From an uncultured Phycisphaerales bacterium (GTDB taxonomy: Bacteria > Planctomycetota > Phycisphaerae > Tepidisphaerales > Tepidisphaeraceae), in the NCBI GenBank assembly GCA_963755915.1, contig CAVWLP010000002.1, positions 2,112,001 to 2,176,000 on the forward strand: DNA of 64,000 nt, given 5' to 3'. The first letter of the stretch is position 1. The number at the start of each line of letters is the position of its first letter. This document shows positions 16,494-40,405 of this stretch, one piece after another. The notes beneath the pieces are model-generated. The model did no database searches, had not been told where the DNA came from, and saw only the letters and a program-made list of their open reading frames with translations. Position numbers and translations under genes: made by a program.

Positions 16494-16605
16494 TCGGATG
16501 ACTAAATAGAGGGTAATCCGGCCAAAAACCGAAAGACCCGTTAACGAGTAAGCCGACGCAAATGAATCCTGAAACCTCGGGATTCGGGTGCGTCGGCCTT
16601 TTTTT
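16494..16605 (+). ncRNA. Conserved structured 5' leader, copy 1 (candidate riboswitch/attenuator with intrinsic terminator)
   Basis: TCGGATGACTAAAT..GGGTA-hairpin-GACCCGTTAACGAGTAAGCCGACGCA..GAATCCTGAAACCTCGGGATTC..TGCGTCGGCC-T7; three more copies in the window. Confidence 0.8.
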
Positions 16606-16675
16606 GGCGCGACGTTTCTCGAGGAAATTGCGCCGACTAATTCGAGCATATCTCTAAAATGAAGGGAGCGTCGTC

Positions 16676-16828
16676 ATGCTCTGGACTTTTGCACTGATAC
16701 TTATGGTCTTGTGGCTGCTCGGGGTCGTTACCTCATACACAGCCGGTGGATTGATCCACATTCTGTTGGTTGTGGCCCTGGTCGTCATCGTCGTCCGTCT
16801 CCTCCAGGGACGCAGGCCCCTGGCGTAG
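16676..16828 (+). CDS. lmo0937-family small membrane protein (50 aa, absent from the ORF track)
   Basis: GGGAG RBS; MLWTFALILMVLWLLGVVTSYTAGGLIHILLVVALVVIVVRLLQGRRPLA. Confidence 0.85.
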   Translation: MLWTFALILMVLWLLGVVTSYTAGGLIHILLVVALVVIVVRLLQGRRPLA

Positions 16829-16949
16829 ATCCAAGCGGCTGGGCGTTCAATTGCGGGCGTCGGCGTCAATATTGTGGCGCTGTTCGGGCCTCACACGGCA
16901 AGAACGCCTGGCCGGTTTACCGAACAGCGGTTGCTTCAGGAGATCCGAT

Positions 16950-17243
16950 ATGAGTCGAATCAAACCAAACGCGAGGAAGTTAGTCGCTCCGATGGCGATG
17001 ACCCTGTTAATGGGTTTGGCCGGTTGCGTCGGGGGCTACGGGTATGTTGATGGAGGCCCGGAGTGGGATGGCGTAGTGGTTGTGGGGGGAGGATATGACA
17101 GAGGGTACAACCGCGATTACCACCCCCAGGCGTTTCACAACGAGGGCGGCCGGCCTGCGGCCGTCGCCAGCGCCAGGGGAAGGGCGTCGATGGGAGCACG
17201 CGCGGGCGGGGGACACGCGGCTTCTGGCGGCGAGCGCAGATGA
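16950..17243 (+). CDS. Small Gly-rich lipoprotein
   Basis: AGGAG RBS; lipobox LAGC; Gly/Tyr-rich body. Confidence 0.6.
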   Translation: MSRIKPNARKLVAPMAMTLLMGLAGCVGGYGYVDGGPEWDGVVVVGGGYDRGYNRDYHPQAFHNEGGRPAAVASARGRASMGARAGGGHAASGGERR

Positions 17244-17313
17244 TCGCCGCTCGGATTGAGCTCCTTGGCTGGGAGCAGTGGATCGATTGAACAACCATCG
17301 TGAGAAGAAATCT

Positions 17314-18306
17314 ATGAAAACAAAAATACGCGGAAATAGCGGATGGATTGCCGTCGCCCTATTGGCGGGCGGAGCTTTGCTTCTGACAAACGGGTGCAGT
17401 AGCACCACAAGTTCGCCAGCGGACGCGACTTCAGTACAGACCGCGGACATGCCCGGCCAGGGCCAACCATTATTTGCCAGCGACAACGAGGCGATGAATG
17501 CGATGCTGACGGCCGTCAAAAACCAGGACCATGAGCAAGTGCATCTCTTCCTTGGACCGGCATGGAAGGAACTTGTCTCCGGCGACAAGGTGGAGGACGG
17601 CAATGCTTTCAAGGAATTCGCCCAGCGCGCGGCTGAGCGCACGCGACTGCAACGGCAGGATGATACGACTTCCATCATGTATGTCGGCAATGACGATTGG
17701 CCGTTTCCGATCCCGATTGCGAAAACGTCCGATGGGAAATGGTTCTTCGACACCGAAGCCGGCAAAACGGAAATCCTGGCTCGCCGGATTGGTGCAAACG
17801 AACTGGAAACGATCGATGTGTGCCGGAAGTACATTGAAGCGCAGCGCGAGTATGCCAGCGAGGATCGCGATGGCAGCGGCGTACGCAAGTTCGCTCAAAG
17901 AATCATAAGCACGCCGGGGAAGACGGATGGCTTATACTGGAACGCAACCTCGGATCAGGAGCAAAGCCCATTCGGCCGATTGTTCGCGGCGGCGGCAACG
18001 CAGGGGTATGACCTGGCCGCAAGCCATCCGCGCCGGCCTTACTATGGATATCGCTTTCGCGTGTTGAAGCAACAGGGCTCCGCGGCGCCGGGCGGCACGA
18101 GCGACTACATCATCAACGGAGACATGACCGGCGGCTTTGCGCTGGTGGCCTTCCCCGAAGACTATGAATCATCGGGGATCATGACGTTCATCGTGAGTCA
18201 GCAAGGGGACGTCTATCAGAAGGACCTGGGCCCAAATACCACCCAGCTCGCGCGGCAGATGACGGAGTACAACCCCGATGCAAGCTGGACGCTGGTGAAA
18301 GATTAA
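17314..18306 (+). CDS. DUF2950 family protein
   Basis: Lipoprotein-like signal; WPFPIPI, EILARRIG.NE, DGLYW, PYYGYRFR, SGIMTFIV, VYQKDLG. Confidence 0.85.
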   Translation: MKTKIRGNSGWIAVALLAGGALLLTNGCSSTTSSPADATSVQTADMPGQGQPLFASDNEAMNAMLTAVKNQDHEQVHLFLGPAWKELVSGDKVEDGNAFKEFAQRAAERTRLQRQDDTTSIMYVGNDDWPFPIPIAKTSDGKWFFDTEAGKTEILARRIGANELETIDVCRKYIEAQREYASEDRDGSGVRKFAQRIISTPGKTDGLYWNATSDQEQSPFGRLFAAAATQGYDLAASHPRRPYYGYRFRVLKQQGSAAPGGTSDYIINGDMTGGFALVAFPEDYESSGIMTFIVSQQGDVYQKDLGPNTTQLARQMTEYNPDASWTLVKD

Positions 18307-18414
18307 ACATCGCGTCGGCGCATGCGCAACGGAAGGTAAATTATCGGCTATCCCACGTGCGCGGGTGGCGTTGGGCATTGTCGTTTGGCATCTGAACCCC
18401 CTGAGGCATCACAC

Positions 18415-20799
18415 ATGATCGCACCACTTGCACCACCACTTGCTCCGCCCGTCGCCAGTGATGTGTCCCCCAGCGAGTTGGATGCCAAATCATCGCAAGG
18501 CCTCACCAGCGAAGAGGCCCGGCGTTTGTTCGGCCAGTTCGGCCCCAACTCAATGCCCGATACGTCAGCGCATCCGGCGCGAATGGCTATCGAGAAGCTG
18601 TGGGCGCCGATCCCCTGGATGTTGGAAGCGGCGATCGTGCTGGAGTTGGTGCTTGGCAAATATATTGAAGCTGCGATTATCGCGGTGCTGCTGTTGTTCA
18701 ACGCCGCGCTTGGGTTCTTTCAGGAAGGGCGTGCCCAGGCAACGCTCGCCGCGTTGAAAAAGCGGCTGGCGCTGACTGCTTCGGTCCGCCGCGACGGGGC
18801 GTGGAAGAATTGCCCGGCGGCCGATTTGGTGCCGGGGGACATCGTGAATCTATCGCTTGGCGGCGTGGTTGTCGCGGATGTGAAGCTGGTCGAGGGCAAC
18901 GTCCTGCTCGATCAATCGATGCTCACGGGTGAATCGATCGCCATCGAAGCGGGGCCGGGATTCCAAACTTATGCGGGGGCGCTGGTGCGCCGCGGCGAGG
19001 CCGTGGCCCTGGTCACAGCGACCGGAATTCGGACCAAGTTCGGACGCACCGCGGAGCTGGTTCGCACGGCGCATGTTGTCAGCTCCCAGCAAAAGGCCGT
19101 GTTGCGCGTGGTGCGAAATCTCGCGGTGTTTAACGGCATTCTGATCATCGTCCTGGTTGGGTATGCCCTGACTCATTCGATGCCATGGAAGGAGATTCTT
19201 CCGCTGGTGCTGACAGCGGTTTTGGCGTCGATCCCGGTTGCACTGCCAGCCACGTTTACATTGGCGAGCGCTTTGGGGGCTCGAGCACTGGCGCGGCAAG
19301 GCGTGTTGCCGACACGGCTCTCCGCCGTCGATGAAGCGGCCTCCATCGATGTGTTATGCGCGGACAAAACTGGAACGCTCACGCGCAACGAGTTAACGGT
19401 GATGATGGTCGTCCCGATGCCGGGCTTCGACGAGCGGCATGTGCTGATGATGGCGGCCCTGGCCAGTTCGGAGGGTGGGCAGGACCCCGTGGACGAGGCG
19501 ATTTGTTGCTCCGTGTCGGGCAAAGTCGCTTCTAACCCACCCAAATTGTCCCACTTCGAGCCCTTCGATCCGGCGAAGAAGATGTCGGAGGCGACGGCGG
19601 TTGATTCGAGCGGAGGAACAATACGCATCATTAAGGGCGCGTTTGCCGTCGTCGGGAATCTTGCGGCGCCTTCGCCCGGCGCGCCCGCCGCGGCGAACGA
19701 ACTGGAGTCGAAAGGTTTTCGGGTACTCGCCGTGGCGGCTGGACCGCCAGCGGCGTTGCAGCTCATGGGGTTGATCGCGCTCAGCGATCCAGCCCGCGAC
19801 GATTCCGCGGCCCTGGTCACGGAACTGAAAACGCTGGGCGTTCGCACGGTGATGGTGACCGGCGACGCGCCGGCAACGGCGGCAATTGTGGCGCATGCCG
19901 TTGGTCTCGAAGGAGCGGTTTGCCCCCCCGGGCCGATCCCCAGCGACGCTCGCCCTGAAAGTTTTTCCGTCTTTGCCGGCGTTCTGCCCGAGGACAAATA
20001 TAAACTGGTGAAGGCATTCCAAAAGGGCGGTCACATCGTCGGCATGTGCGGCGACGGCGCCAACGATGCGCCGGCGCTGCGGCAGGCTCAGATGGGAATC
20101 GCCGTATCGACCGCGACCGATGTCGCCAAGTCCGCCGCGGGCATTGTGCTCACCAATCCGGGACTCGTTGGCATCGTTGACTCGGTCAAGGAAGGGCGTA
20201 TTACATTTCAACGCATCCTGACGTACACGCTGAACTCCATGACCAAGAAAATCGTGCAGGTGATGTTCCTTGGCGTGGGTCTTGTCATGACCGGGCACGC
20301 GATCCTCACCCCCATGCTGATGGTCATCGTGATGATGGTGGGTGATGTCCTGGGTATGTCGTTGACCACCGACAATGTCCGCCCGTCGCCGCTGCCAAAT
20401 AGCTGGCGCATCGGCAAGCTGACGGTCGCGGGCATATTTATAGGCGCGTCCGAACTGGTGTTTTGCTCCGCCGTTCTGGCGATTGGTCACTTTCGCATGG
20501 GCCTGGGCATTGCAATGTTGCAAACCCTGGCGTTCGTCACGCTGGTGTGCGGGAATCAGGCAACCACCTATGTTGTACGCGCACGCCGGCGAATATGGTC
20601 GTCACCCCGTCCAAGTCACTGGCTTGTCTTATCGTCCGTCGCCGATCTGTTGATCGCACTGGTACTGGCCGAACGCGGCTGGCTCATGCGGCCGCTGTCC
20701 CTATTGGTGTTGGTCAGCGTGCTTGGCGGCGCCATTGCGTTCACCTTTGTCCTGGATTTGGTAAAGGTGTCCGTGTTCAGACGCTTAGAGATTGCATAG
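18415..20799 (+). CDS. P-type ATPase, plasma-membrane H+-efflux (P3A-like) #1
   Basis: WAPIPWMLE, TGES, IPVALP, DKTGT, TGD, GDGANDAPAL, M6 Asp (MVGD). Confidence 0.85.
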   Translation: MIAPLAPPLAPPVASDVSPSELDAKSSQGLTSEEARRLFGQFGPNSMPDTSAHPARMAIEKLWAPIPWMLEAAIVLELVLGKYIEAAIIAVLLLFNAALGFFQEGRAQATLAALKKRLALTASVRRDGAWKNCPAADLVPGDIVNLSLGGVVVADVKLVEGNVLLDQSMLTGESIAIEAGPGFQTYAGALVRRGEAVALVTATGIRTKFGRTAELVRTAHVVSSQQKAVLRVVRNLAVFNGILIIVLVGYALTHSMPWKEILPLVLTAVLASIPVALPATFTLASALGARALARQGVLPTRLSAVDEAASIDVLCADKTGTLTRNELTVMMVVPMPGFDERHVLMMAALASSEGGQDPVDEAICCSVSGKVASNPPKLSHFEPFDPAKKMSEATAVDSSGGTIRIIKGAFAVVGNLAAPSPGAPAAANELESKGFRVLAVAAGPPAALQLMGLIALSDPARDDSAALVTELKTLGVRTVMVTGDAPATAAIVAHAVGLEGAVCPPGPIPSDARPESFSVFAGVLPEDKYKLVKAFQKGGHIVGMCGDGANDAPALRQAQMGIAVSTATDVAKSAAGIVLTNPGLVGIVDSVKEGRITFQRILTYTLNSMTKKIVQVMFLGVGLVMTGHAILTPMLMVIVMMVGDVLGMSLTTDNVRPSPLPNSWRIGKLTVAGIFIGASELVFCSAVLAIGHFRMGLGIAMLQTLAFVTLVCGNQATTYVVRARRRIWSSPRPSHWLVLSSVADLLIALVLAERGWLMRPLSLLVLVSVLGGAIAFTFVLDLVKVSVFRRLEIA

Positions 20800-20878
20800 T
20801 TCAACAGATATTCAATAATTTTGTGGGGACGGGACACCAAGCCCTCCAACTTACGACAGGGACAAAGAAGGATAAACA

Positions 20879-22630
20879 ATGAGCATGGCAATTTCCCTTC
20901 CAGCGGTTAAACCCGTCCCGACGCAAATGCAGCACCGCCAGATTCCCGTTTTGCCGGAACGCCCGCGCGTCCATCCTATCGCCTGCGAGATTCGCCGGTC
21001 GTATCCCGTCGGAAGGCAAAACTTCTCGCGCTTGCCAAGGGGAAGTTTTGGTCTTGACCATCACCTCTTGCGATCCAGTTCCCGAGAACGTTCAAGCGAG
21101 TCTTATGACGACGCTGAACTCGGATGATGGCAAGTCGTGGACCAAAGTCCCATTCGTGCGTGCCGATGAGCGGAATCTGACGTGCCACATCAGGCCCGAA
21201 CGTCCCGGCCTCCACTCCTTTCGGGCCGAGTTCTCCCTGGATCGGGGTACGACCTGGCTTCGGGACACCGTCCCCGACGCCTGGATATTGATCGATCCTT
21301 CACAAGTTGATGGCCTGCGCGTCTATACCCTGATTCCCGCCGTTTCCGGCACAGTCGCAGATTGGATGGCCGATCTGAAGCGCATCAGCGCGATGGGCTT
21401 CAATGCCATTCACCTTCTGCCGGTCACGACTTTGGACACATCACAAAGTCCGTATTCGGCCAAAGACCTGTTTGATATCGATCACAGTTACCTGATGGAA
21501 GGATCCCGGCAAGATGGCCTGTCGCAGTTGGAAGATTTTATCGCAGAAGCAAAGAGGCTCGACATACGTCTGATCTTTGATCTGGTCCTGAACCACGTGG
21601 GCGTGAACAGCACAATGGCACGGCGGGCGCCGGATTGGATTGTGCCGGACCAGAATCAGCCCGATCGGTTCCGGCGCGCACGGTATTGGTCCGACCAGGG
21701 GTGGCGTACCTGGAATGACCTCATCTTGATCAATTACGAACATCCCTCCGAGGCAATTCGTTCGGAAATACGGGCTTACATGGTGGACTACGCGCTGTTC
21801 TGGGCGAAATATGCAAATGACACCGGCGGGTTCGTGCGATTCGACAATCTGCACAGCAGCGACCCCGATTTCGTTACAGCGCTCACGGCATCGCTGCATT
21901 CAGAGTATCCCGAGGTGGGCATTCTCGCCGAGTATTTTACCGATGAAAGCACACTGCTGCGTACGGGACCGGAATGGGGGCTGAATCTGAATCTGGCGAC
22001 GCCGTGGAATTTCAAGTTTGTTCCTCAGCTTCGCGAATATCTCAATTACATTCACCGCGTTTCTGAGCACATTCGATACTTTGTGCCGATCACCTCGCAC
22101 GATTCCGGGTCGCCCGCGCAGGAGTTTGGCACCGCTGACTCGACGGTTCCGCGATACGTCACAGCCGCCTTGCTGGGCACCGGAGCCACCGGAATTCCGC
22201 AGGGAGTCGAATTCGGCGAGAAAGAACGGATCGATTTTATCGGCAGAAAACCGAAGATGATCTATCCCGTCGAGGCGAGGTTCGCCAAATTCATCAGCCG
22301 GGTTAACGCTATTCTCGTCGAGTATCCGGCCTTCCGTTGCGGGGGGAATTGCCGGTTCGTCGATAACGGGCATTCCGCTGTCATCGCCGCGTTCCGTGAA
22401 AGCTCGGGCACTGACGCGCAGGGATTTCTAGTCGCATGTAATTTCGATACGCAGAATCAACAGCACATAACGGTCGAGCTTGCGCCTTTGATCTCAACAG
22501 AGGGACCCTTCACATGCTGTGAATTGTTAAGCGGGGAGATTCAGCATTTCTCACAATCACACCTGGAGCTTGTGCTTCCCCCTTTCGTGCGCAAGTGCTG
22601 AAGTTTCTAAGAAACAATCAACCTAATTGA
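20879..22630 (+). CDS. GH13 alpha-amylase-family glycoside hydrolase (frameshifts ~21040 and ~22580)
   Basis: MGFNAIHLLP, SPYS..D, DLVLNH, RFDN, AEYF, SHD; N-terminus in ORF 20879-21127. Confidence 0.75.
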
Positions 22631-22713: not shown

Positions 22714-22824
22714 TCGGATGACTAAATGAAGGGTATTTCGGCCCCCCAGCCGGAAGACCCGTTAACGAGTAAGCCGACGCAATTGAGTCCCGACACCTCG
22801 GGATTCGGATGCGTCGGCTTTTTT
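22714..22824 (+). ncRNA. Conserved structured 5' leader, copy 2
   Basis: TCGGATGACTAAATGAAGGGTA..GACCCGTTAACGAGTAAGCCGACGCA..GAGTCCCGACACCTCGGGATTC..TGCGTCGGC-T6. Confidence 0.8.
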
Positions 22825-22866
22825 CGTTTCTGCCAAAATGGATATCCACTCACAGAGGTACTCTAT

Positions 22867-23823
22867 ATGAGAACACCCAGTCCTTTTGCCGCACTGATCT
22901 TTATCGTAATCCTCGGCATTGGCGGAGGGTTGGCGTTCGCCGCCTATAGCGCGGCGGCGCCGGAAAGAAGCGTGTGTATTGCAGTTGTCACTTTTGTGAT
23001 CGCGCTCATCGCCGCCCGCGCAATCAAGGTTGCCGATCAATGGGATAAAGCGGTGATCCTCCGTCTGGGCCAGTTCCACGCGCTCAAAGGGCCGGGGCTT
23101 TTCTTCATCATTCCAATTGTCGATGCCATTCCCTATTGGATCGACACGCGAGTCATCACGACCGGTTTCAAAGCGGAAAAAACCCTTACTAAAGACACGG
23201 TCCCGGTGGATGTGGATGCGGTGCTGTTTTGGAAAGTCATTGACCCGAAAAAGGCGGCGCTCGGTGTAGCTGATTATCGAAGCGCCATAAGCTGGGCGTC
23301 GCAAACAGCCCTGCGCGATGTGATCGGCAAAACCATGCTTTGCGACATGCTGGAAGGCCGGGACAAAATCAGTGAGCTGCTGCAGAAGATCATCGATGAG
23401 CGTACCGAACCGTGGGGAATCAACGTTATTTCCGTGGAAGTGAAAGACGTTTTGATCCCGCAGGCTTTGGAAAATGCCATGTCAATGCAGGCCCAGGCAG
23501 AAAGAGAGCGTCAAGCCAGGGTGATTCTGGGAGATTCCGAGCGACAGGTTGCCGAGAAGTTTGCCGAAGCCTCAAAAAGCTATCAGCACAATCCGGTCGC
23601 CTTTCATTTAAGGGCAATGAACATGCTCTATGAGGGCCTGAAGCAGAATTCCACCATCGTCATCGTTCCCAGTACGGCCGTGGAAAGCATGCAACTCGGG
23701 GGTCTCGCCGGATTGACGGCTCTGACCATGGGAATTGGTCAAGACGCCGCCAAGGGAAACGGAAAGGATGTCGCGAATCTTGGGACAAACGGCGAGCCTA
23801 CAGAACAGGCGTTACTCAGATGA
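22867..23823 (+). CDS. SPFH/slipin (band 7) membrane protein
   Basis: GPGL.FIIP, TLTKD.V.VDVDAV, QTALRDVIG, QA.AERERQA; GAGG RBS before ATG 22867 (the ORF-track 5' extension runs through the RNA leader). Confidence 0.9.
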   Translation: MRTPSPFAALIFIVILGIGGGLAFAAYSAAAPERSVCIAVVTFVIALIAARAIKVADQWDKAVILRLGQFHALKGPGLFFIIPIVDAIPYWIDTRVITTGFKAEKTLTKDTVPVDVDAVLFWKVIDPKKAALGVADYRSAISWASQTALRDVIGKTMLCDMLEGRDKISELLQKIIDERTEPWGINVISVEVKDVLIPQALENAMSMQAQAERERQARVILGDSERQVAEKFAEASKSYQHNPVAFHLRAMNMLYEGLKQNSTIVIVPSTAVESMQLGGLAGLTALTMGIGQDAAKGNGKDVANLGTNGEPTEQALLR

Positions 23824-23957
23824 ACGAAACAAGTATCGTTCGTTTGAGTATCGCATCATAACTCTTCGCCAATGGCTCGCATAGAAGAAGCCACCGCACA
23901 CCAGGAAGTGCAATCATTCATACGCTAAATAAAATTTCACCAGATAAGATTTCGCCT

Positions 23958-26351
23958 TTGGAGAAGGCTCCAGGCGCGCCTGGAGTTCCGCCGCGTTGGA
24001 CTTCCAGCGCCAAAACCGGCGTGGGCACGGCCCTCAGCAACAAGAGCCTTGTCTGGTTCACGCTGAGCCACGGAATCTTCAACGAAATCTTTTATCCGCG
24101 CGTCGATCAGGCCTGCATCCGCGACATGGGGCTGATTGTCACCGACGGAGCCGATTTCTTCTCAGAAGAAAAGAGGGATGTCGACTCGCTGGTCCACTGG
24201 CTGACTGAGGGTGTCCCGGCATTCCGGCTGGTCAATACGTGCCGCGCCGGCCGATACCGCATCGAAAAGCAAGTCGTGACCGATCCGCAGCGAAACACTG
24301 TGCTGCAGCGGGTCCAGTTCGTGCCGATGCAGGGCCACCTGTCCGATTATCATCTGTATGTCCTGCTGGCGCCGCATCTGGGGAACCACGGCGATGGCAA
24401 TAGTGCGTGGACCGACGAGTTTGAAGGCCTGCCGATCCTGTTTGCCCAGCGTGATGGATACGCCCTCGCGCTGGCCTGTTCCGCGCCATTCCTGAAGCGA
24501 TCCGTCGGCTACGTCGGCTCGTCCGACGGCTGGCAGGATCTAAAGGCGCATAATCAGATGACCTGGGAATACACGCGGGCTCAGAACGGTAACGTGGCCC
24601 TGACTGCCGAGATCGATCTTCTTCATTGTAAGGGACACTGCGAATTGGCGTTGGGCTTTGGCAAAAGTGCAGAAGAAGCCGCGAAAAACGCCGTCGCCAG
24701 CCTTCACGATGGCTTTGACAACATAAAGCACGAATATATTTCCGGCTGGCAGCACTGGAAGAAGTCGCTCATCTCGACAAAAAAAGACCATCTCCCTCTC
24801 GGCGATCTTTCCCCGATCAGCCTGGCAGTCTTGCGCACGCATGAGTCAAAAACTGCCCTCGGCGGTTTCATCGCCAGCCTCGCCATCCCATGGGGATCAA
24901 GCAAGGGCGACGGCGACCAGGGCGGTTACCATCTTGTCTGGTCGCGCGACATGGTAGAAACGGCGGGCGCGTTGCTGGCCGGCGGTGCACATGAAGACGC
25001 GCGCCGCGCGCTATCTTTTTTGCAGTCAACTCAACAGCCGGACGGACACTGGCCTCAAAACATGTGGGTGGATGGCACACCGTATTGGAACGGAATCCAA
25101 CTGGACGAGACTGCGCTGCCTATCCTGCTGGTGGACTTGGCCCATCGTGAAAAAGCGCTAACCGACGCGGACGTAGTGCGATTCTGGCCGATGGTGGAGC
25201 TCGCTGTGGGTTACTTGGCGCGCAATGGCCCCGTAAGCCCTCAAGATCGCTGGGAGGAAGATCCGGGCTATTCGCCTTTCACGGTCGCGGCGGAAATCGC
25301 CGCGATCCTGGCCGCGGCGGACATGGCTGATTTGAACCACGAACCGTCCATGGCAACCTACCTCCGCGAAATCGCGGATACTTGGAACACGTCGATTGAT
25401 CGCTGGATGTACGCGTCGAAAACGGACTGGTGCCGCAAGTTCGATGTCCAGGGGTATTACCTCAGGATCGCGCAGGACGAGACCGCGGATGGTGCGCGTT
25501 TTCAGAACCTCGTCCACGTGAAGAATGTTGCGGCCGCCGAGGACAACCGTATGGCCAGACATCTGGTAAGTCCCGACGCCTTGGCACTGGTGCGTTTTGG
25601 TTTGCGCGCGGCGGACGACCCGCGCATTCTCGGCACAGTAAAAGTCATCGATTCATTGCTCAAAGTGGAGACGCCCACTGGCCCCAGTTGGCACCGGTAC
25701 AACGATGATGGGTATGGCGAGCATAAGGACGGCGCGCCCTTTGACGGAACGGGTATCGGCCGCGTCTGGCCACTACTCACAGGTGAGCGGGCTCACTACG
25801 AACTGTTGGCAAATCGGGTGCAGTGTGCAAAGGTACTATTGGCCACAATGGAATCGTTTGCCAACGAAGGAGGGCTGATCTCAGAACAAATCTGGGACTC
25901 GCCCGACCTGCCGGAACATGATTTGTTTCTCGGCAAGCCTTCCGGTTCCGCCATGCCGCTGGTTTGGGCTCATGCTGAGTACATCAAGCTCAGGCGTTCT
26001 CTACGCGACGGACACGTTTTCGACCTGCCGCCACAGACCGTGCAACGCTATCTGGTCGACAAAACGGTGTCTCCTCGCATGGTGTGGAGGTTCAACCACA
26101 AACTTCGTTCTATGCCCGCGGGAAAATCCCTGCGTGTCGAAACGCTTTCCCCCGCGGTTATTCACTGGAGCGTTGATGATTGGAAAACTCATCAGGACAC
26201 AAAGTCGCGCGATGCGGGCCTAGGCCTTCACGTTGCGGATCTCTCCACCCAATCGCTTCCGGACGGACAAGAGATCAAATTCACTTTCTACTGGCCCGGC
26301 GCGGGTCACTGGGAAGGAACCGACTTCATCGTTCGTATCGGCTCTTTTTGA
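23958..26351 (+). CDS. Glucoamylase/glucodextranase-type GH15 (glucan 1,4-alpha-glucosidase)
   Basis: APGAPG.PPRWTSSAK, YHLVWSRD, QDRWEE, RYNDDGYGE, WP.LTGER, EQIW, PLVWAHAEY. Confidence 0.9.
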   Translation: MEKAPGAPGVPPRWTSSAKTGVGTALSNKSLVWFTLSHGIFNEIFYPRVDQACIRDMGLIVTDGADFFSEEKRDVDSLVHWLTEGVPAFRLVNTCRAGRYRIEKQVVTDPQRNTVLQRVQFVPMQGHLSDYHLYVLLAPHLGNHGDGNSAWTDEFEGLPILFAQRDGYALALACSAPFLKRSVGYVGSSDGWQDLKAHNQMTWEYTRAQNGNVALTAEIDLLHCKGHCELALGFGKSAEEAAKNAVASLHDGFDNIKHEYISGWQHWKKSLISTKKDHLPLGDLSPISLAVLRTHESKTALGGFIASLAIPWGSSKGDGDQGGYHLVWSRDMVETAGALLAGGAHEDARRALSFLQSTQQPDGHWPQNMWVDGTPYWNGIQLDETALPILLVDLAHREKALTDADVVRFWPMVELAVGYLARNGPVSPQDRWEEDPGYSPFTVAAEIAAILAAADMADLNHEPSMATYLREIADTWNTSIDRWMYASKTDWCRKFDVQGYYLRIAQDETADGARFQNLVHVKNVAAAEDNRMARHLVSPDALALVRFGLRAADDPRILGTVKVIDSLLKVETPTGPSWHRYNDDGYGEHKDGAPFDGTGIGRVWPLLTGERAHYELLANRVQCAKVLLATMESFANEGGLISEQIWDSPDLPEHDLFLGKPSGSAMPLVWAHAEYIKLRRSLRDGHVFDLPPQTVQRYLVDKTVSPRMVWRFNHKLRSMPAGKSLRVETLSPAVIHWSVDDWKTHQDTKSRDAGLGLHVADLSTQSLPDGQEIKFTFYWPGAGHWEGTDFIVRIGSF

Positions 26352-26387
26352 GGCGATGTAATTGTCTCTACTAAAGCGGTGAGGTTC

Positions 26388-27764: not shown

Positions 27765-27792
27765 AAATTTTACACAAGAAGAAAGGACTACC

Positions 27793-31650: not shown

Positions 31651-31760
31651 TCGGATGACTAATTGAGGGGTAGATCGGCCAACGGCCGGTGGACCCGTTA
31701 AAGAGTAAGCCGACGCAATTGAATCCTGAAACCTCGGGATTCGGTGGCGTCGGTTTTTCT
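31651..31760 (+). ncRNA. Conserved structured 5' leader, copy 3
   Basis: TCGGATGACTAATTGAGGGGTA..GACCCGTTAAAGAGTAAGCCGACGCA..GAATCCTGAAACCTCGGGATTC..GCGTCGG-TTTTTCT. Confidence 0.8.
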
Positions 31761-31775
31761 GTTGATTGGAAAATA

Positions 31776-31997
31776 ATGAGCGGCACTAAGCATTCTGTTG
31801 AAAGCGAAGGATCCAAGTCACGGGATCACGCCCAACCGCGCCACCATTTTTGGAAACATGCGCACCGGGATTGGCGCGTCTGGGTCACTGTGCTGCTGAT
31901 GCTCCTTGCGATGGTTATCTATGTAATAACGGACAACCTGTCCCTCAGACCCGGCAAACGCGCGATTCAGCCCACGCCTGAGGCAAATGGCCCTTAG
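31776..31997 (+). CDS. Small single-pass membrane protein
   Basis: WKHAHRDWRVWVTVLLMLLAMVIYVITDNLS: one transmembrane helix; first gene after leader copy 3. Confidence 0.6.
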   Translation: MSGTKHSVESEGSKSRDHAQPRHHFWKHAHRDWRVWVTVLLMLLAMVIYVITDNLSLRPGKRAIQPTPEANGP

Positions 31998-32030
31998 AAC
32001 GGTGTTTGTTCTAACTATAGGAATAAAACT

Positions 32031-34460
32031 ATGTCAATCGATCTCTTAGATCCCGACGTCAAAGCCCGCAATGACGGAGCTTCGCCACTTGAAACCAGTG
32101 GCGTGCTCTCACCGGAGTTGCTTGGCAAGATGAACGCCTATTGGCGTGCCGCGAATTATCTTTCGGTCGGGCAGATTTATCTATACGACAATCCGCTGCT
32201 CAAGGAGCCGCTGAAATTGTCGCACGTAAAGCCGCTGGTAGTTGGCCACTGGGGCACGACGCCGGGCCAGAATTTCATTTACGTGCACTTGAATCGGGTT
32301 ATCAAGAAGTATGACCTCGACATGTTCTACATCGCCGGCCCCGGTCACGGGGGTCCGGCAATTGTCGGCAATGTCTATCTCGAAGGCACCTGGAGTGAAG
32401 TCTATCCGAATGTGACTCAGGACGAAGCGGGCCTGAAAAAGCTATTCAAGCAATTTTCGTTTCCCGGCGGAATCTCCAGCCATGTAGCGCCGACGACGCC
32501 GGGCTCGATTCACGAAGGCGGTGAGCTGGGATATTCGCTGAGCCATGCATTCGGCGCCGCTTTCGACAATCCCGATTTGATTGTCGCCTGCGTCGTCGGC
32601 GACGGCGAAGCGGAAACCGGCCCGCTGGCGACCGCCTGGCAATCCAATAAATTTCTCGATCCCATTTCCGACGGGGCCGTGCTGCCGATCCTCCACCTCA
32701 ACGGCTTCAAGATCAGCAACCCCACAGTCCTCTCCCGCATCGAGCATGACGAACTGGAACAATTCCTGCGCGGCTGCGGCTGGACGCCTCACTTCGTTGA
32801 AGGCGATGAGCCGGAAAAGATGCATCAACTGATGGCCGCCACCTTGGAAGCCGCCATCGAGGAAATCCGGGAAATCCAAAAGAATGCGCGGAGTAAAAAT
32901 GACACGACTCGCCCGCGCTGGCCCATGATCGTCTTGCGATCGCCCAAGGGCTGGACCGGACCAAAGATTGTCGACGGCCTTCCATGCGAAGGCACCTTTC
33001 GCGCCCATCAGGTTCCGCTGCTCGTGGATTCCGATCACCCCGAGCACGTTGCACAGCTTGAAAGCTGGATGAAAAGCTACAAGGCCGAGGAGTTGTTCAA
33101 TGAGCACGGCCGATTGAACGCAGAATTGGCCGAGCTTGCGCCGAAGGGCGACCGCCGAATGGGCGCCAATCCCCACGCCAACGGCGGCGTTCTATTGCAC
33201 GATTTGAAAATGCCCGATTTCCGCGATCATGCGGTACACGTTCCTTCGCCCGGCGCCGTTGACGGCCAGGATACGCTGGTGCTCGGCCAATTCCTGCGCG
33301 ATGTCGTTAAGCTGAATGACAAGCCACGCAATTTCCGCGTATTTGGCCCTGACGAGACGCTGTCAAACTTGCTCGGCGCGGTCTTTGAAGTCACCAACCG
33401 CCAATGGGATGCCCGGGAAGTGACGAACGACGAATTCCTCTCACCCGATGGAGCCGTGCTGGATTCGATGCTCAGCGAGCATCAGTGCGAGGGTTGGCTG
33501 GAAGGATATCTGCTCACCGGCCGGCATGGGCTGTTCAACAGCTACGAAGCCTTCATTCGCATCGTCGATTCGATGTTCAGCCAGCACGCCAAGTGGCTGA
33601 AGGTAACATCGGAACTGCCCTGGCGCCGCAAGATCGCATCGCTGAATTATCTGCTCGCCTCTCACGTCTGGCAGCAGGATCACAACGGCTTCACACATCA
33701 GGATCCCGGATTTCTCGACCACGTCATCAACAAAAAGGCTGACATCGTTCGCGTTTATCTGCCCCCGGATGCGAACTGCCTGCTATCCGTTTTCGATCAT
33801 TGCCTGCGCAGCCGGCATTACGTCAACGTGGTGGTTGCCGGTAAACATGCCCTCCCGCAATGGCTGACCATGGAAGCAGCAGTCGTGCACTGCACGGAAG
33901 GAATTGGCATCTGGCAATGGGCCAGCAACGACCAAAACAGCGAGCCGGACGTGGTGATGGCCTGCTGCGGTGACACGCCAACTCTGGAGATTCTCGCCGC
34001 TGTTTCAATTCTTCGCCAGCATTTTCCCGATTTGAAAATTCGGGTGATCAATGTCGTCGATCTGATGAAGCTGCAATCCGCCAGCGAGCATCCACATGGA
34101 CTAAGCGAAGCAGATTACGATTCGCTCTTCACAAAAGACAAGCACATTGTCTTCGGCTTCCATGGATACCCCTGGCTGGTCCATCGGCTGACCTACCGCC
34201 GAACCAATCGCAACCTTCATGTCCGCGGCTACAAGGAAGAGGGCACAATCACAACGGCCTTCGACATGAGGGTGCAAAACGACCTTGATCGCTTTCATCT
34301 AGTGCAGGATGTGGTGGATCGCCTGCCGCAATTGGGCGCCAAAGGAGCATATCTCAAGCAGATGGTCCAGGACAAGCTCATCCAGCACAAGCTTTACATC
34401 GATCAACACGGCCAGGACCTTCCGGAAATCCGCAATTGGAAGTGGAGCGTTCCCACATGA
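32031..34460 (+). CDS. xfp: Phosphoketolase (xylulose-5-P/fructose-6-P)
   Basis: [62 protein letters not shown]. Confidence 0.95.
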
Positions 34461-36956
34461 ACGAACAATCGCAACAAAAGTCCAATCCAACGGACGATCT
34501 GAAAACATTGCCGATGGCAGAGGTGGAGAAGAGATTGCACTCTTCGCCGGATGGTCTCAGTCAGGCTGAGGCTGCGAAACGGCTCGCTCAATACGGACCG
34601 AACGAGATCGCGGAGAAGAAGACCAACCTGCTCCTGAAATTTCTTTCGTATTTCTGGGGCCCGATCCCCTGGATGATTGAAGTGGCGGTCATCCTCTCGG
34701 GCGTGGTCCACCATTGGCCCGATTTTTTCATCATCCTCCTTTTGCTGGTTTGCAACGCCGTTGTGGGATTCTGGGAGGAGCGCCAGGCGGGCAACGCCAT
34801 CGCTGCCTTAAAGAAAACACTGGCGATTCAGTCAAAGGCCAAACGTGACGGCAAATGGATCACACCTCCGGCTCGCGAGCTCGTACCGGGCGATGTTATT
34901 CGCTTGCGACTAGGCGACATTATTCCCGCGGATGCGCGCCTGCTGGCGGGCGACGAAGTGGCCGTCGATCAATCCGCACTTACAGGCGAATCATTGCCGG
35001 CAACGCACAAACCTGGCGACGCCGTCTTTTCCGGTTCGATCATGCGCCGCGGTGAAATCGACGCACTGGTGTATGCCACCGGCACGCACACCTACTTCGG
35101 CAAAACAGCCCAATTGGTCGGGGAAGCGCAAACCGCGAGCCATTTCCAACGCGCGGTGTTGAAGATCGGCAATTTCCTCATCATCCTCGCCGTGGCTCTG
35201 GTGGTTGTAATTATTGCCGTCGCGATCTGCCGCGGGGACCGGATCCTCACCACGTTGCAGTTCGCTCTGGTGCTGACGGTTGCCGCAATTCCGGTCGCGA
35301 TGCCGACGGTTTTGTCGGTGACAATGGCCGTCGGCGCGCGCCTCATGGCCAAGAAGAAGGCGATTGTCAGCCGGCTTGTGGCCATCGAGGAACTGGCCGG
35401 TGTTGATATACTCTGCTCGGACAAGACGGGCACTCTCACTCAAAACAAGCTGACGCTGGGCGATCCGTTCACGGTCGATAACATTCCCGCCGACTAGGTC
35501 ATCCTTGCCGCCGCGCTGGCTTCGCGCGGAAGATAAGGACACCATCGACCTCGCCGTCCTCGGTGGTGTGAAGGACGAGAAAACGTTGAAGACCTATCAA
35601 GTCGTTCACTTCAAGCCGTTTGACCCCGTCCAGAAGCGCACCGAAGCCACGATCATAGGCGCGGACGGAAAGCAGTTCGATGTAGCCAAGGGCGCACCGC
35701 AGGTGATTCTGCAGATGTCGACGAATGCTGGTGAGGTAAAGACGGCCGTAGAGAAGGCCGTCAATGATTTTGCCGGACGCGGCTTTCGTTCCTTGGGCGT
35801 TGCCCGCGCAGACGAGAAGGGCAAGTGGCGTTTTCTGGGTGTGTTGCCAATGTCCGATCCTCCGCGAGAAGATGCCAAGGCAACCATCGCCACCGCCCGA
35901 CAAATGGGCGTCAGCATTAAAATGGTTACGGGCGATCAAATCGCCATCGCTCGCGAAATGTCCAGGGAGTTGGGCCTGGGAACCAATATCCTTGACGCCA
36001 GCGGGTTAGGGGATTCCAAAAAGAAGGAATCCCCCGAGGAAACCCAACTCGTTGAAAAGGCGGACGGCTTCGCCCAGGTATTTCCCGAGCACAAGTTTCA
36101 CATCGTCGACATTCTGCAAAAGCGCGGTCATATCGTCGGCATGACCGGCGATGGAGTGAATGATGCACCAGCCTTGAAAAAGGCCGACTGCGGTATCGCC
36201 GTCTCCGGAGCAACCGACGCGGCCCGCGCGGCCGCATCCATCGTCCTGCTGACCTCTGGACTATCGGTAATCATCGACGCGATCAAAGAAAGTCGCCGGA
36301 TCTTTCAGCGGATGAATAGTTATGCCATCTACCGCATCGCCGAAACGCTGCGCGTACTGTTTTTCATGACCCTCGCAATTCTAGTGTTCAATTTTTATCC
36401 GCTGACCGCCGTGATGATTGTGATGCTGGCATTGCTCAACGATGGAGCGATCCTCTCCATCGCGTATGACAACGTTCATTACAAGGACAAACCCGAGGCA
36501 TGGAACATGCGCGTGGTGTTGGGGATTTCCACCGTGCTGGGCGTCATCGGCGTCGTCTCAGCGTTCGGCCTGTTTTACCTCGGCGAACGCGTCTTCCGCC
36601 TCGACCGCTCGCACATCCAGACCTTGATGTATTTGAAATTATCTGTGGCCGGCCATCTGACAATCTTTCTCACCCGCACGCGCGGACCGTTCTGGTCCAT
36701 CAAGCCGGCGAAGATTCTCTGGATCGCCGTTCTCGGCACGCAAGCCATCGCCACATTGATCGCAGTCTACGGAATCTTTATGACGCCCCTCGGTTGGGGT
36801 TGGGCCGCATTTGTCTGGGGTTACGCCCTCGGATGGTTCCTGATTAACGACCGCATCAAGCTGCTCGCGTATCGAATCTTTGATCCGACAAATGCCACGT
36901 CGATTGTGAAAAAACCGATCGCGACGGTCGCAACCGTCGCCGTACCAGCCGTTTGA
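34457..36956 (+). pseudogene. Plasma-membrane H+-ATPase (P3A) #2, interrupted by TAG at 35495-35497 and an adjacent 2-nt frameshift
   Basis: FWGPIPWMIE, TGES, IPVAMPTVLSVTMA, CSDKTGTLT, KGAP, GDGVNDAPALKKAD, ALLNDG; the break could be a sequencing error. Confidence 0.85.
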
Positions 36957-36973
36957 ATAAATGGAGCAATAGA

Positions 36974-37381
36974 ATGAATACCCGTCAACATGATCACGAA
37001 CCATTCGCAACTGGCCATCGAAGCCACCCGGTTACTTTACTCAGTGCGGCCGTCGCCTCCGCTGATAATGCATTCATAGATGCATTGGAACTGCGCGAGG
37101 ACATTCAGCTTTGTGCCTTCCGTAAATGAGAGGCCGCTGGCAAGCCTGCCGGGGATGGTGTTCATTTTTGGTTGCAAGCGGAGAAAGAACTCGCCGAAAC
37201 AGGAATTGAAATGTCGGTCGGTCGGAACGATCGGCGCCTCGATCGTTCGCTTGAGACGCAGGCCGCCGGAGAGAATGCGAAGGCGCTCAATGCGAGCGTG
37301 GACAGCCACTACCGGGACAACAACAGGATGTTCCAACGCCACGGCGATCGCGGGCACAGGCACGGCGTGAAGAACGACTAA
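36974..37381 (+). pseudogene. DUF2934-domain protein with premature stop (TGA at 37127 in place of the conserved Trp)
   Basis: EDIQLCAFRK*EAAGKPAGDGVHFWLQAEKEL aligns with neighbour IRLYAYRRWEIAGKPAGDGIPFWLEAEKQL. Confidence 0.75.
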
Positions 37382-37468
37382 CGCCGTTGGAGCCACAATT
37401 CGGTATTGCTACGGTAGCGGTAGCCGAGACCTTTTGAGTTTTTACGATTGAGACCAGAGAACACAACC

Positions 37469-37780
37469 ATGCAGAGACAAAACCAGATTCTTCCAGCGTC
37501 GGGACGGGCCAATCCAACTGCACCCGCGGATAAAGCACCAATCCTCGCCGGATTGGCCAACGAGGTCGATAGCGCCCGCGTCATCTCAGCGGACGCCATC
37601 AGGCTTTACGCCTACCGGAGATGGGAGATAGCGGGAAAGCCCGCCGGAGACGGTATTCCGTTCTGGCTGGAAGCCGAGAAACAATTGGCCGCCGAGAACG
37701 AAGTTACCTCGGGCCGCGGCAACAGTCAGGATGCCGACCGACACCTCGGAGTCCGACATCCCCATTCCTTGAAGAGATAA
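37469..37780 (+). CDS. DUF2934-domain protein
   Basis: IR..AY..WE..G.P.G....W..AE..L signature. Confidence 0.8.
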   Translation: MQRQNQILPASGRANPTAPADKAPILAGLANEVDSARVISADAIRLYAYRRWEIAGKPAGDGIPFWLEAEKQLAAENEVTSGRGNSQDADRHLGVRHPHSLKR

Positions 37781-37830
37781 CACCGGGATTTCACTGTGGT
37801 ACCACAGATGAACGTCCTCTAGTAATCATC

Positions 37831-37915
37831 ATGAAAATCAAATCGAAGGATTTCCGTGTTGACGCTGAAGACAATGTTAAGCTCCGGAAATGGCCGACAA
37901 CTATCGCGCCCATTT
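37831..37915 (+). pseudogene. N-terminal remnant resembling polyphosphate kinase 2
   Basis: MKIKSKDFRVDAEDNVKLRKWPT resembles the N-terminus of PPK2-family proteins; similarity stops after ~28 codons. Confidence 0.45.
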
Positions 37916-38171
37916 TGCCTGTCGGGCAGGCGACTCATATCGTTCCTCCAGCATCTACAGCGTGGCCCAGAGTTTGGGTCGCGACTGCAGCGAACCCGTA
38001 AAAGATACCACGAATATTTCCCGCATAATGTCTGATACCGGACAGACAGCCCATTTATACAGTCGTACAAATGCCGCGCATGATGGGTGCCTCCGGGCAA
38101 AACAGGCGCCCAACGCGTGACGGGCCGAGAATCCGTTTCGCCGGACTGAGTTTTTTTGGGCAGAAAAATCG

Positions 38172-39355
38172 GTGAATCCACTTCTTTTACAACTTACACA
38201 TCCTCCATTCCCCAGGGTGGCCGAAATCATTCGATCCGGGGCGGAGGAGATTACGCAGGAATGGGACGGCGCCGTTCGGCAAGCCATGCCGCAGATGCGC
38301 CATCTGACATTCGACGAGCTGAAAGATTCGACGCCTCAAATATTGCTCGCCATCGCCGACGCTCTTGCGTCGGATAATCCGGAGGTGATTCGGGAACTGG
38401 TAAGGCGGGCCCCGTCCCAGGGGCTTTCCCGTTTCCGGCTGAACTTCGACGTTGTGGAGGTCATGCAAGAGGATCGGCTTCTGCGGGCGATTATTGTCTT
38501 GCACGTGGAGACGGAACTGGGCCGCCGGATGGACGCCCTGGAATCCGCGGCGCTGCACGCGGCGGTCGATGTCATGCTTCAGCGGTCGGTGATCGCCCTT
38601 GTAGAGCAGCAGAAGTGTCAGCTCCGGGCGGCTGCGGAAAGAGAATTGAAGTACCTTTCGTTCCTGTCGCACGACCTGAACAATCACCTTTATGGGGTCA
38701 CCCTGTCGCTCGATGAATTACGCTGCCGTTTGAGCAACACAACCGGTTTCGACGGCGCTGCGGATTCCCTGGCTCGCGCTCAGAACTCGATTCAGACCAC
38801 GGTTGCGGGTATGCGGCGTCTGCTCGATCGGGAAATGCTTCGCAAGTCCGGCGAGAAGACGAAGTTCTTGCCGGTGGATTTGCAGTCTCTGGTCACGAGG
38901 ATCGCGGAACAGTTCTCGCCGGAGGCGGATGCCAAGGGTGTAAGGCTGGCGGTCGAAGTGCGGCCAGGCACGGTGGTCGTCTCGGATGGGGAACTGCTCT
39001 CGCTGGTTCTGCAAAATCTCGTCGGCAACGGCGTGAAATTTAGCAGCGGCGGTACCGTTCGCATAGGTTGCGACGGCGCGGCCGAAGGGGGGCGACCCGT
39101 CATATCGATATCGGACCAGGGCCGGGAATAGCCCCGGAAAAGATAGGCCACATCTTCGAGGCATTCAAAAGAGGCGAGGTATACGGCCAGCGCGGAGTGG
39201 GGCTGGGACTGTCCATTGCATCGCAAGCGGCGAGGCATCTGGGCGCCGAGCTGACGGTGGATTCGGAACTCGACATCGGTACCACATTTCGGTTGAAGCT
39301 GATTGGCGAGCTCAAACGAGAAACCATTCGTCAGGGCAAAATGATGATGACATGA
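38172..39355 (+). CDS. Cytoplasmic sensor histidine kinase (frameshift ~39122)
   Basis: H-box FLSHDLNN, N-box QNLVGNGVKF, DQG.G, G-box GVGLGLSI, GTTF. Confidence 0.85.
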
Positions 39356-39456
39356 CTGGCTTTCCGAATCTTTTCGACTTAGCCGGTCCGGCGGCCTATA
39401 ATTTGCAGCTAGGGAAGCTTCAAATACTCAGGTCCTTAGCCAATCTGTATCGCATC

Positions 39457-39567
39457 TCGGATGACTAAATAAAGGGTAGTCCTGGCAAGGGCCGGAAGAC
39501 CCATTAACAAGTAAGCCGACGCAATCGAGTTCCGAAACTTCGGGATTCGGATGCGTCGGCTTTTTTT
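39457..39567 (+). ncRNA. Conserved structured 5' leader, copy 4
   Basis: TCGGATGACTAAATAAAGGGTA..GACCCATTAACAAGTAAGCCGACGCA..GAGTTCCGAAACTTCGGGATTC..TGCGTCGGC-T7. Confidence 0.8.
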
Positions 39568-40332: not shown

Positions 40333-40405
40333 GAAGGGACCATCGAGCCGTGTTGTTCACGGCCATGGCCTTCCCGGTTCTCAAGACTTCCGAAAGGAGC
40401 CTTTT

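Follow-up and report, generated by a model that had tools for sequence, protein, structure and literature searches.

The stretch analysed here (the window) comprises 64,000 nucleotides (nt) of an uncultured Phycisphaerales bacterium of the Tepidisphaeraceae (GenBank assembly GCA_963755915.1, contig CAVWLP010000002.1, forward-strand positions 2,112,001 to 2,176,000; plain coordinates below are window positions). It holds four copies of a leader element of about 118 nt each, all on the plus strand and each lying before a run of genes. According to Pfam and NCBIfam these runs encode type IIIA H+-ATPase-like pumps, phosphoketolase, a glucan 1,4-alpha-glucosidase, a sugar porter and small stress membrane proteins, in agreement with the regulon drawn in the initial annotation, which had been made from the sequence alone and had proposed an orphan riboswitch. 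The four repeats belong to an undescribed Planctomycetota family of short leader RNAs that end in a terminator.

The four copies were aligned with their flanks by MAFFT. The alignment (157 columns) has a mean column identity of 82%, conservation starts sharply at TCGG, and the consensus string given in the initial annotation agrees with it. A covariance model built from the four copies (R1) recovered them at the annotated positions with 127-134 bits (E ~1e-33); four other matches in the window are antisense to the terminators and score 31-42 bits. The next plus-strand open reading frames (ORFs) start at 16676, 22867, 31776 and 39696, about 70, 42, 17 and 128 nt past the U-tracts of copies 1 to 4, respectively.

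Folding with RNAalifold and of the single sequences predicted an irregular hairpin of about 64 nt, termed the sensor hairpin here, followed by a long compound hairpin and a U-tract. For the full-length RNA, the minimum-energy fold is the terminator hairpin in all four copies; it takes up the stretch GCCGA, with z-scores of -4.7 to -7.2, and none of 200 shuffled sequences was as stable. When the RNA was cut before the 3' arm of the terminator, the basal stem (P1, UCGG/CCGA, and P1b, ACU/AGU) and the inner helices formed, again in all four copies (z -2.2 to -3.5). The 3' strand of the basal stem and the 5' arm of the terminator, from whose overlap two competing folds had been deduced, do share sequence, and GCCGA is common to both in every copy of the family. 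The apical hairpin and the inner terminator stem keep their pairing despite sequence change, in the window copies and in the wider family; as had been noticed, the apical hairpin of copy 1 is weaker, with one C-A cell in the window alignment. A simple terminator scanner, which needs an uninterrupted stem and a loop of 3-8 nt, did not list the four terminators because these are compound hairpins with interrupted stems.

The search of further genomes with a covariance model, recommended along with the initial annotation, revealed 11 copies in the window's genome (three contigs, 81% complete, 8% contamination) and further ones in several planctomycete orders. An aptamer-only model (R2) built from 110 sequences found the same 11 copies in this genome and none without a terminator. 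The motif is present in 24 of 61 genomes (60 relatives and the window's own), including all 12 other species of the genus, and each of these genomes has few copies, about 1 to 11. The unpublished genome G014 is included in all tallies over 61 genomes (motif, MpsC, CsrA and CsrA-like paralogue; the proteins are treated below), and its locus L042 is part of alignment A3 and of the set of 114 copies used for downstream genes. Without G014 the motif occurs in 23 of 60 genomes, MpsC in 22 of 60 and both in 20, and no conclusion depends on this genome.

In a collection of species genomes, a pattern of the two conserved blocks matched at least 130 loci. Among the 80 loci listed, 77 carry planctomycete labels, and the labels comprise Tepidisphaeraceae, other Phycisphaerae, Pirellulales, Planctomycetaceae, Gemmataceae, Isosphaeraceae, Thermoguttaceae and Kuenenia-labelled metagenome-assembled genomes (MAGs). 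All of the listed loci come from MAGs. R1 gave 91 matches in 77 of the pattern loci, one of them antisense and one cut by a contig end. The best R1 scores outside the window's genome, like the source names of near-identical proteins, point to Tepidisphaeraceae as the probable family of the organism. The non-planctomycete labels among the 80 are one Aggregatilineales (L062) and two from a single contig of a 'delta proteobacterium' (L117, L118); possible causes are errors of binning or labelling, or genuine transfer. The copy in the Aggregatilineales MAG has a long insertion in P3, and the 'delta proteobacterium' contig holds two or three copies. The overall distribution is patchy: the motif was detected in 4 of 150 genomes drawn evenly from the phylum, with strict filters and few candidates scored. 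Within the window's genome, a second cluster (G000 C3:61700 and C3:67034) repeats the pairs seen at window copies 2 and 3, i.e. a leader with an SPFH gene and a leader with genes for a small membrane protein and phosphoketolase. The Pfam scores of the SPFH proteins are identical to those in the window, and the cluster is either a duplication or the trace of two strains in the assembly.

Covariation was evaluated on alignment A5, which contains 75 distinct sequences found by the covariance model and not by the pattern. In the sensor-state structure, 94.7% of the cells are paired compared to 85.5% in shuffles, and none of 500 shuffles reached the observed values; controls with a slid partner strand fell to 27-52% pairing. 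Changes on both sides occur in 23 of the 30 sensor-state pairs and in all 12 pairs of the inner helices P2, P2b and P3, the last P2b pair being C-G in 40 sequences and U-A in 33. Both terminator stems covary as well (28 of 35 pairs across the stored structure), and at least 7 T are found within the 9 nt past the terminator stem in 146 of 161 copies. The family thus ends as intrinsic terminators do, in a stable G+C-rich hairpin directly before a U-tract. The covariation check that had been called for therefore came out in favour of P2, P2b, P3 and the terminator but not of P1 and P1b. The basal stem that had been read by eye is able to pair and forms in the cut-RNA folds, but it is invariant and draws no support from covariation.

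The sensor domain is a compact hairpin in which two invariant internal loops lie between covarying helices. Its near-invariant strands are UCGGAUGACU and GAGUAAGCCGA, and the near-invariance extends over about 25 nt across orders. As in a riboswitch, the domain is both structured and conserved, and it lies in the 5' leader of the genes downstream. The A of GCCGA is changed to G in some sequences; the terminator partner follows in four of them (AU to GC), while U1 stays unchanged in five, leaving a U-G pair in P1. These variants are compatible with both the P1 and the terminator pairing and are proof of neither. A mutual-information scan for another partner of the 5' strand found none, and we regard a basal stem P1/P1b that overlaps the terminator as plausible. 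Three other candidate features were discarded. A base pair between positions 6 and 59 (U-A to C-G in two copies) was given up as position 6 varies freely (T 129, A 17, C 13, G 2) and its partner mostly A. GGGTA was considered as a sigmaB-like -10 box; this stretch covaries with its 3' partner (GGGU/ACCC to GGGC/GCCC, 33 versus 40 sequences). A mini-ORF of the form AUG ACU NNN stop is present at motif positions 5-16 in 106 of 161 copies, with its stop triplet within P2, and leader-peptide attenuation was rejected as a general mechanism with 33 of the 161 copies devoid of AUG.

Upstream of the motif, many copies appear to possess a sigma70-like promoter of their own at a distance of about 50-60 nt, as judged from sequence statistics. 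TAnAAT occurs at -80 to -45 before the motif in 35 of 160 copies compared to 6.45 in shuffles, and a TTGnnn-17-TAnnnT promoter score of at least 9 was reached by 46 of 159 copies and by 184 of 1590 shuffles, the end of the -10 box being located mostly at -65 to -50. A hairpin, P0, is usual between promoter and motif; arms of the type GGAGY/RCUYC were found in 37 of 161 copies, with 1.9 expected. The 6 nt preceding the motif tend to AAGUYG. Taken as 8 nt (e.g. window positions 16486-16497), this linker tends to CGAAGUYG and is able to pair with UCG(G) of the 5' strand, which may constitute a third competing pairing. The promoter-like boxes of copy 1 (Table 1) were not listed by the promoter scan, their -35 box being weak, while the promoter of copy 4 was the best in its region. 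Copy 2 follows 113 nt behind the co-oriented gene 21048-22601; promoter scans recognised no promoter and no P0 was recognised upstream of it, and this copy is probably read from upstream. In the tandem loci L130, L110 and L077, two complete units are only 1-20 nt apart, and the second copy therefore has no room for a promoter.

For the genes downstream, the longest ORFs within 1.5 kb were picked blind to strand, yielding 137 ORFs, 85 on the strand of the leader and 52 on the opposite one. Among those with Pfam support (E 1e-5 or better), 42 of 43 are on the leader's strand, so that the orientation check proposed against repeats of the repetitive extragenic palindrome (REP) or miniature inverted-repeat transposable element (MITE) kind spoke for a leader. 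Across the family, the downstream genes encode DUF2294/MpsC, CsrA-like, DUF3309, DUF5670/lmo0937, DUF1328 and Transgly_assoc proteins, Hsp20, Hsp70, YflT, ferritin/Dps-like, PRC-barrel and SPFH proteins, PAS histidine kinases, KaiC-like ATPases, sigma factors, fatty-acid desaturases and ice-binding-like proteins as well as phosphoketolase, transketolase, aldolase and glycosyltransferases. This is a general-stress-like set. In the window, the pump behind copy 1 scored 596.6 bits with TIGR01647, slightly below the cut-off of 615.5.

Table 1. Leader copies, their parts and other features of the window
Feature	Position	Strand	Remarks
Leader copy 1	16494..16611	+	R1 130.5 bits
Copy 1 putative promoter boxes	TCGCTT 16414-16419; TATTGT 16437-16442	+	17-nt spacer; read by eye
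Copy 1 P0	TGGAGCT 16453-16459 / GGCTCCG 16470-16476	+	hairpin search and fold
Copy 1 sensor hairpin	16494-16556	+	P1 5' strand 16494-16497, P1 3' strand CCGA 16553-16556; counted by hand
Copy 1 terminator hairpin; U-tract	16552-16597; 16599-16605	+	counted by hand from the sequence
Genes behind copy 1	16676..22601	+	lmo0937/DUF5670 membrane protein, DUF2950 protein, type IIIA H+-ATPase-like P-type pump, alpha-amylase/debranching-like enzyme (Pfam, NCBIfam)
Leader copy 2	22714..22832	+	R1 131.6 bits
Copy 2 sensor hairpin; terminator; U-tract	22714-22777; 22773-22818; 22819-22824	+	
Genes behind copy 2	22867..28659	+	SPFH/Band 7 protein, glucan 1,4-alpha-glucosidase (GH15), sugar porter, PRC-barrel protein (Pfam, NCBIfam)
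Leader copy 3	31651..31768	+	R1 127.3 bits
Copy 3 upstream long hairpin	31593-31638	+	
Copy 3 sensor hairpin; terminator; U-rich tail	31651-31713; 31709-31754; from 31754	+	
Genes behind copy 3	31776..39355	+	membrane protein of 73 amino acids, phosphoketolase, second H+-ATPase-like pump, DUF2934 protein, histidine-kinase-like gene with RsbRD_N
Leader copy 4	39457..39574	+	R1 133.9 bits
Copy 4 predicted sigma70-like promoter	39374-39402	+	TCGACT, 17-nt spacer, TATAAT; listed by the tool, 10/12 matches
Copy 4 P0	39408-39415 / 39433-39440	+	hairpin search and fold
Copy 4 sensor hairpin; terminator; U-tract	39457-39519; 39515-39560; 39561-39567	+	
Genes behind copy 4	39696..43995	+	two small ORFs, DUF3309 protein, YihY/BrkB membrane protein, DyP peroxidase, two further small ORFs
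Split 2-hydroxyacid dehydrogenase gene	4345-5350		two adjacent or overlapping ORFs
Split gene of the second pump	34436-36956		two adjacent or overlapping ORFs; break ~35497/35505
Split histidine-kinase-like gene	38172-39355		two adjacent or overlapping ORFs
IS21-type element	28782-31434	-	IstB-like ATPase 28782-29672; integrase-core transposase 29669-30868; helix-turn-helix piece to 31434
DDE_3 transposase fragment	49096-49536	+	
Very large PATR/PEP-CTERM proteins	within 45985-60816		several; one of 1662 amino acids
tRNA	62923-62996	-	68.3 bits

Among the DUF2294 (MpsC/YbcI-like) genes, two types of paralogue can be distinguished, with 29% identity between them. No gene occurs behind the leader more often than MpsC type 2 (24 of 114 copies, median start 44.5 nt past the motif match), and a CsrA-like gene follows it in 12 cases; type 1 was not found behind any of the 114 copies. 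A hand comparison of published carrier genomes placed 32 of 38 type-1 genes within 250 nt of a copy. Where leader and type 1 diverge, the gap between them is nearly constant within the genus at about 123-129 nt and contains back-to-back promoters (e.g. L006:1620-1745, alignment A10). The type-1 gene is preceded by a conserved -10-like box of its own, some 13 nt from the ATG, and has a very short leader; its product is 82-95% identical across the 120 relatives listed. Canonical CsrA is encoded in 60 of the 61 genomes, with or without the motif. A divergent CsrA-like paralogue, which keeps the N-terminal Leu residues and the Arg before E-V-W, is high-scoring in 13 of 24 carriers and in none of the 37 non-carriers.

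DUF2294 proteins are near-neutral or acidic, with isoelectric points mostly of 4.9-7.0, while most of the CsrA-like proteins are basic. A confident AlphaFold model of MpsC-1 (predicted local distance difference test score 87.6, predicted template modelling score 0.80) consists of a helix, two strands, two helices and two strands. With this model, Foldseek returned weak matches to Bet3/TPC6 and H-NOX chains (E 5e-3 to 4e-2, probability 0.8-0.99, template modelling score ~0.4-0.45). VIA-align gave a TRAPP subunit at Z 6.2 (root-mean-square deviation 4.0, 103 residues aligned), a V4R protein and the PoxR sensor at Z 5.3, RbfA-like rows at Z 6.0 and unrelated rows up to Z 7.0. We take the sensor-type fold that these model comparisons may indicate as a lead, not a finding. 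By sequence, neither MpsC-1 alone nor a profile matched anything in PDB below E 0.17, and NCBIfam has no family for MpsC-1, MpsC-2 or the small ORFs. A divergent unit at L248:1918-2012 (genome G129) is located between MpsC-1 and MpsC-2 genes and comes with its own promoter (TTGACG-17-TATAAT) and terminator. Its closing stem is CCGGC/GCCGG in place of UCGG/CCGA, its fold is family-like, and R2 scored it with 16.9 bits; as a single case this variant is a lead only. In a search for more of its kind, the family comprised only two genomes, and the one extra weak match lies apparently within a coding sequence.

Comparison with Rfam 15 produced a tRNA as the only match in the whole window, a chance match of the terminator to a plastid 3' untranslated region when copy 1 and its flanks were searched at E up to 10, and a chance match to mir-8303 for 20 diverse loci at E up to 0.1. 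These results are consistent with the initial annotation, in which the leader was not recognised as a validated riboswitch class. Kinship with the sul1 motif, which had been put forward as a possibility, did not find support: both are orphan candidates, but the leader matched no Rfam family at gathering score or at relaxed E-values (E 0.1 on the 20 diverse members), which covers sul1 only if it is in the library. The Rhodopirellula-1 motif is likewise a cis-regulatory RNA candidate from Planctomycetes that is not in Rfam, and is linked to a transposase-resistance motif in the account of it (Weinberg et al., 2010; PMC2864571). Its alignment in the supplement of that work, compared by eye, differs from ours in sequence and hairpin, so that the two are different elements as far as this alignment goes. 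Literature searches returned no description of the motif strings or of planctomycete attenuation or antitermination beyond Rhodopirellula-1 and nothing relevant on DUF2294, YbcI or MpsC. 'Planctomycetes' occurs zero times in the main texts of the large motif-discovery papers of 2017, 2021 and 2024, whose supplements could hold a related motif.

Among established regulatory devices, terminator-coupled ON riboswitches for second messengers or alarmones share with the leader a compact 5' hairpin, a closing stem (putative in the leader) whose 3' strand is common with the terminator, many copies before mixed genes and tandem units. The leader differs from them in the lack of an Rfam match, a closing stem without covariation, one uniform terminator platform and the DUF2294 gene partner. 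Protein-dependent antiterminators (the ribonucleic antiterminator (RAT) of BglG/SacY, ANTAR targets, PyrR sites) resemble it in having a short conserved hairpin that overlaps a terminator, near-invariant sequence and a conserved small gene adjoining. In contrast to these, the hairpin of the leader, at about 64 nt, exceeds theirs in length and contains two internal loops, DUF2294 as the candidate partner is not basic, and CAT_RBD (PF03123) gave no match in the window's genome, 81% complete, while controls matched in four genomes. ANTAR (PF03861) gave no match either there or in its control genomes. The CsrA-like paralogue in the regulon and the GGA in the invariant 5' strand and in the P0 arm (GGAGY) are reminiscent of the CsrA/Rsm system. 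However, canonical CsrA occurs irrespective of the motif, 11 of 24 carriers lack the paralogue, only a single GGA is invariant, and a terminator is involved rather than a ribosome-binding site. In gene content the family resembles the general stress regulons of sigmaB, sigmaS and EcfG (Hsp20, YflT, Transgly_assoc of the YeaQ/GlsB-like kind, DUF1328, DUF3309, PRC-barrel, Dps-like ferritin, SPFH, phosphoketolase, glycogen/glucan enzymes). Unlike in those regulons, the common element is a transcribed leader plus terminator behind a sigma70-like promoter and not a special promoter. We class the leader as a new family of a known kind of device, the terminator-coupled leader switch; it is unusual in serving a whole stress-type regulon and in its DUF2294 partner.

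Whatever its effector, the leader is in our view probably a cis-acting conditional terminator. The switch reading of the initial annotation stands insofar as there is a structured leader family with an intrinsic terminator before co-oriented genes; the effector may be a ligand, an ion or a protein. Tentatively, and with less than even confidence, we favour a transcription-attenuation ON switch in which the RNA itself binds the effector, a small signalling ligand or ion, and which would be a new riboswitch class. Transcription would begin at a housekeeping-type promoter about 50-60 nt upstream, or come in from a gene or leader copy located upstream. The RNA would fold the variable 5' hairpin P0 first and then the irregular hairpin of about 64 nt, in which UCGGAUGACU and GAGUAAGCCGA could close P1/P1b around the conserved internal loops. 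GCCGA would be the end of the P1 stem and at the same time the start of the 5' arm of the terminator. By default the terminator would win, the transcript would stop at the U-tract and the gene run would be off; an effector that keeps P1 shut would block the base of the terminator and let RNA polymerase read into the stress-type genes. The data establish the family, its three inner helices, the terminator, the co-orientation, the gene content, the short distances to start codons and the tandem copies devoid of a promoter, and from them we infer the formation of P1, the ON logic and the nature of the effector. A ligand is placed narrowly ahead of a protein because the sensor is built like an aptamer, the promoters are of the housekeeping type, no protein partner is universal and the partner proteins are unlike RNA binders. 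A protein comes next because MpsC-1 is placed like a regulator and co-occurs with the motif, the strands are invariant and the regulon is broad. In broader terms, it is conceivable, and again our tentative reading, that the whole general-stress regulon of some Planctomycetota is switched by a new class of leader RNA and not by a special sigma factor. Transcription would then start constitutively, and the terminator would be released on a stress signal, either a small molecule or ion or an RNA-protein pair with stand-alone DUF2294 sensors and the CsrA-like paralogue.

Regulatory RNA in Planctomycetota is almost unexplored, and the mode of their general stress response is not known. With up to 11 copies per genome, a sensor of about 64 nt, clear helices and a terminator, the family offers an experimentally tractable handle. 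The ligand of a riboswitch would reveal the stress signal to which the regulon responds; a protein-dependent leader would provide the first defined partner for DUF2294 (MpsC/YbcI), a widespread family of unknown function. Either way, it might serve as an inducible control element for planctomycete genetics.

Several observations weigh against a ligand bound by an RNA that closes P1. The four pairs of P1 are near-invariant with no compensatory change among 75 sequences, and in the three pairs of P1b there are a single change from A-U to G-C (L191:2728), one wobble and 7 unpaired cells. A protein-binding site would account for this lack of variation no less than a ligand pocket. From its predicted start, the minimum-energy fold of copy 1 pairs the linker with UCGGA and contains no P1. 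The terminator is part of every copy found, an invariant expression platform unlike that of many riboswitch classes, and the regulon is a broad stress set and not one pathway, which is unusual among metabolite riboswitches, even though second-messenger riboswitch classes do control broad gene sets. Then there is the gene partner: for 54 of 161 copies, an MpsC type-1 gene is present in the 600 nt upstream (39 divergent, 15 reading in the direction of the leader). Of the 61 genomes, 21 have both motif and MpsC, 3 have the motif without MpsC, 2 have MpsC without the motif and 35 have neither. This placement and co-occurrence is the classic look of a regulator gene. It is accordingly quite possible, if somewhat doubtful in our judgement, that the same attenuator responds to a protein: MpsC type 1, alone or via the CsrA-like paralogue, would bind the conserved strands and pick P1 or the terminator, and the induced MpsC type 2 and CsrA-like genes would close a feedback loop. 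The proximity, nearly fixed gap, own -10-like box and high conservation of type 1 fit this proposal, as do the restriction of the high-scoring paralogue to carriers and its retained Leu and Arg residues, and the GGA in the invariant 5' strand is the core recognised by CsrA proteins. The three carriers devoid of MpsC (G012, G023, G057) contain only low-scoring copies with altered conserved strands, and three of the four carriers in the phylum sample of 150 genomes encode MpsC. On the other hand, MpsC was found without a detected motif in 8 further genomes of this sample as well as in G044 and G046, and no copy adjoins MpsC in the loci of motif-less MpsC genomes. The MpsC proteins are not basic, and their weak fold matches point toward sensor-type domains rather than RNA binders, the RbfA-like rows aside. 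The invariant GGA is single, the CsrA-like gene is missing from nearly half of the carriers, and a CAT_RBD protein was not found in the window's genome, which is 81% complete.

The terminated transcripts could instead form a family of trans-acting small RNAs, acting as a sponge for the CsrA-like protein or base-pairing via the invariant 5' strand as a seed, with the downstream genes as bystanders or leakily read. Promoter, stable 5' hairpin, invariant and possibly single-stranded stretch and strong terminator are indeed the usual build of a bacterial small RNA, several paralogous copies exist per genome and GGA falls within the invariant stretch. We nevertheless consider this improbable, given the co-orientation of the supported downstream genes, start codons that follow 17-45 nt past the U-tract with no space for another promoter, and the promoter-less tandem second copies and window copy 2. 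Known CsrA sponges carry many GGA motifs; the leader has one invariant GGA (positions 3-5) and the GGAGY arm of P0 in a minority of copies, and so does not resemble a CsrB/RsmZ-type sponge. A dual role as leader and small RNA may exist. Also unlikely is a leader without a specific effector, which would either attenuate constitutively or respond directly to temperature, pH, transcription speed or general termination factors, as pause- or pH-responsive leaders do. The regulon does include cold- and heat-linked genes (fatty-acid desaturases, ice-binding-like proteins, Hsp20, Hsp70) and H+-ATPase-like pumps, and the balance between the P1 and terminator folds could move with physical conditions, but the near-invariant nucleotides shared across orders are more than a physical sensor needs, and the link to DUF2294 would be left unexplained. 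We give hardly any credence to a mobile or selfish repeat of the REP/MITE kind that merely carries a hairpin. Its multi-copy nature, its patchy occurrence in the phylum and the clustering of copies, with an IS21 element among those of the window, are outweighed by the fixed orientation to downstream genes, by helices that covary like those of a functional RNA and by the low copy number. Moreover, every copy seen is 5' intergenic with a promoter or a co-oriented upstream gene, and no copies inside genes, no random orientation and no target-site duplications were seen.

The window has some further features. Three genes are split (Table 1), which means either frameshifts, pseudogenes or assembly indels. 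The IS21-type element is inserted between the copy 2 operon and copy 3, and the plus-strand ORFs at 28714-29415 that overlap it are probably spurious. Beyond the gene run of copy 4, several very large PATR/PEP-CTERM proteins are encoded in a region that also harbours the DDE_3 transposase fragment, and the tRNA gene is located on the minus strand.

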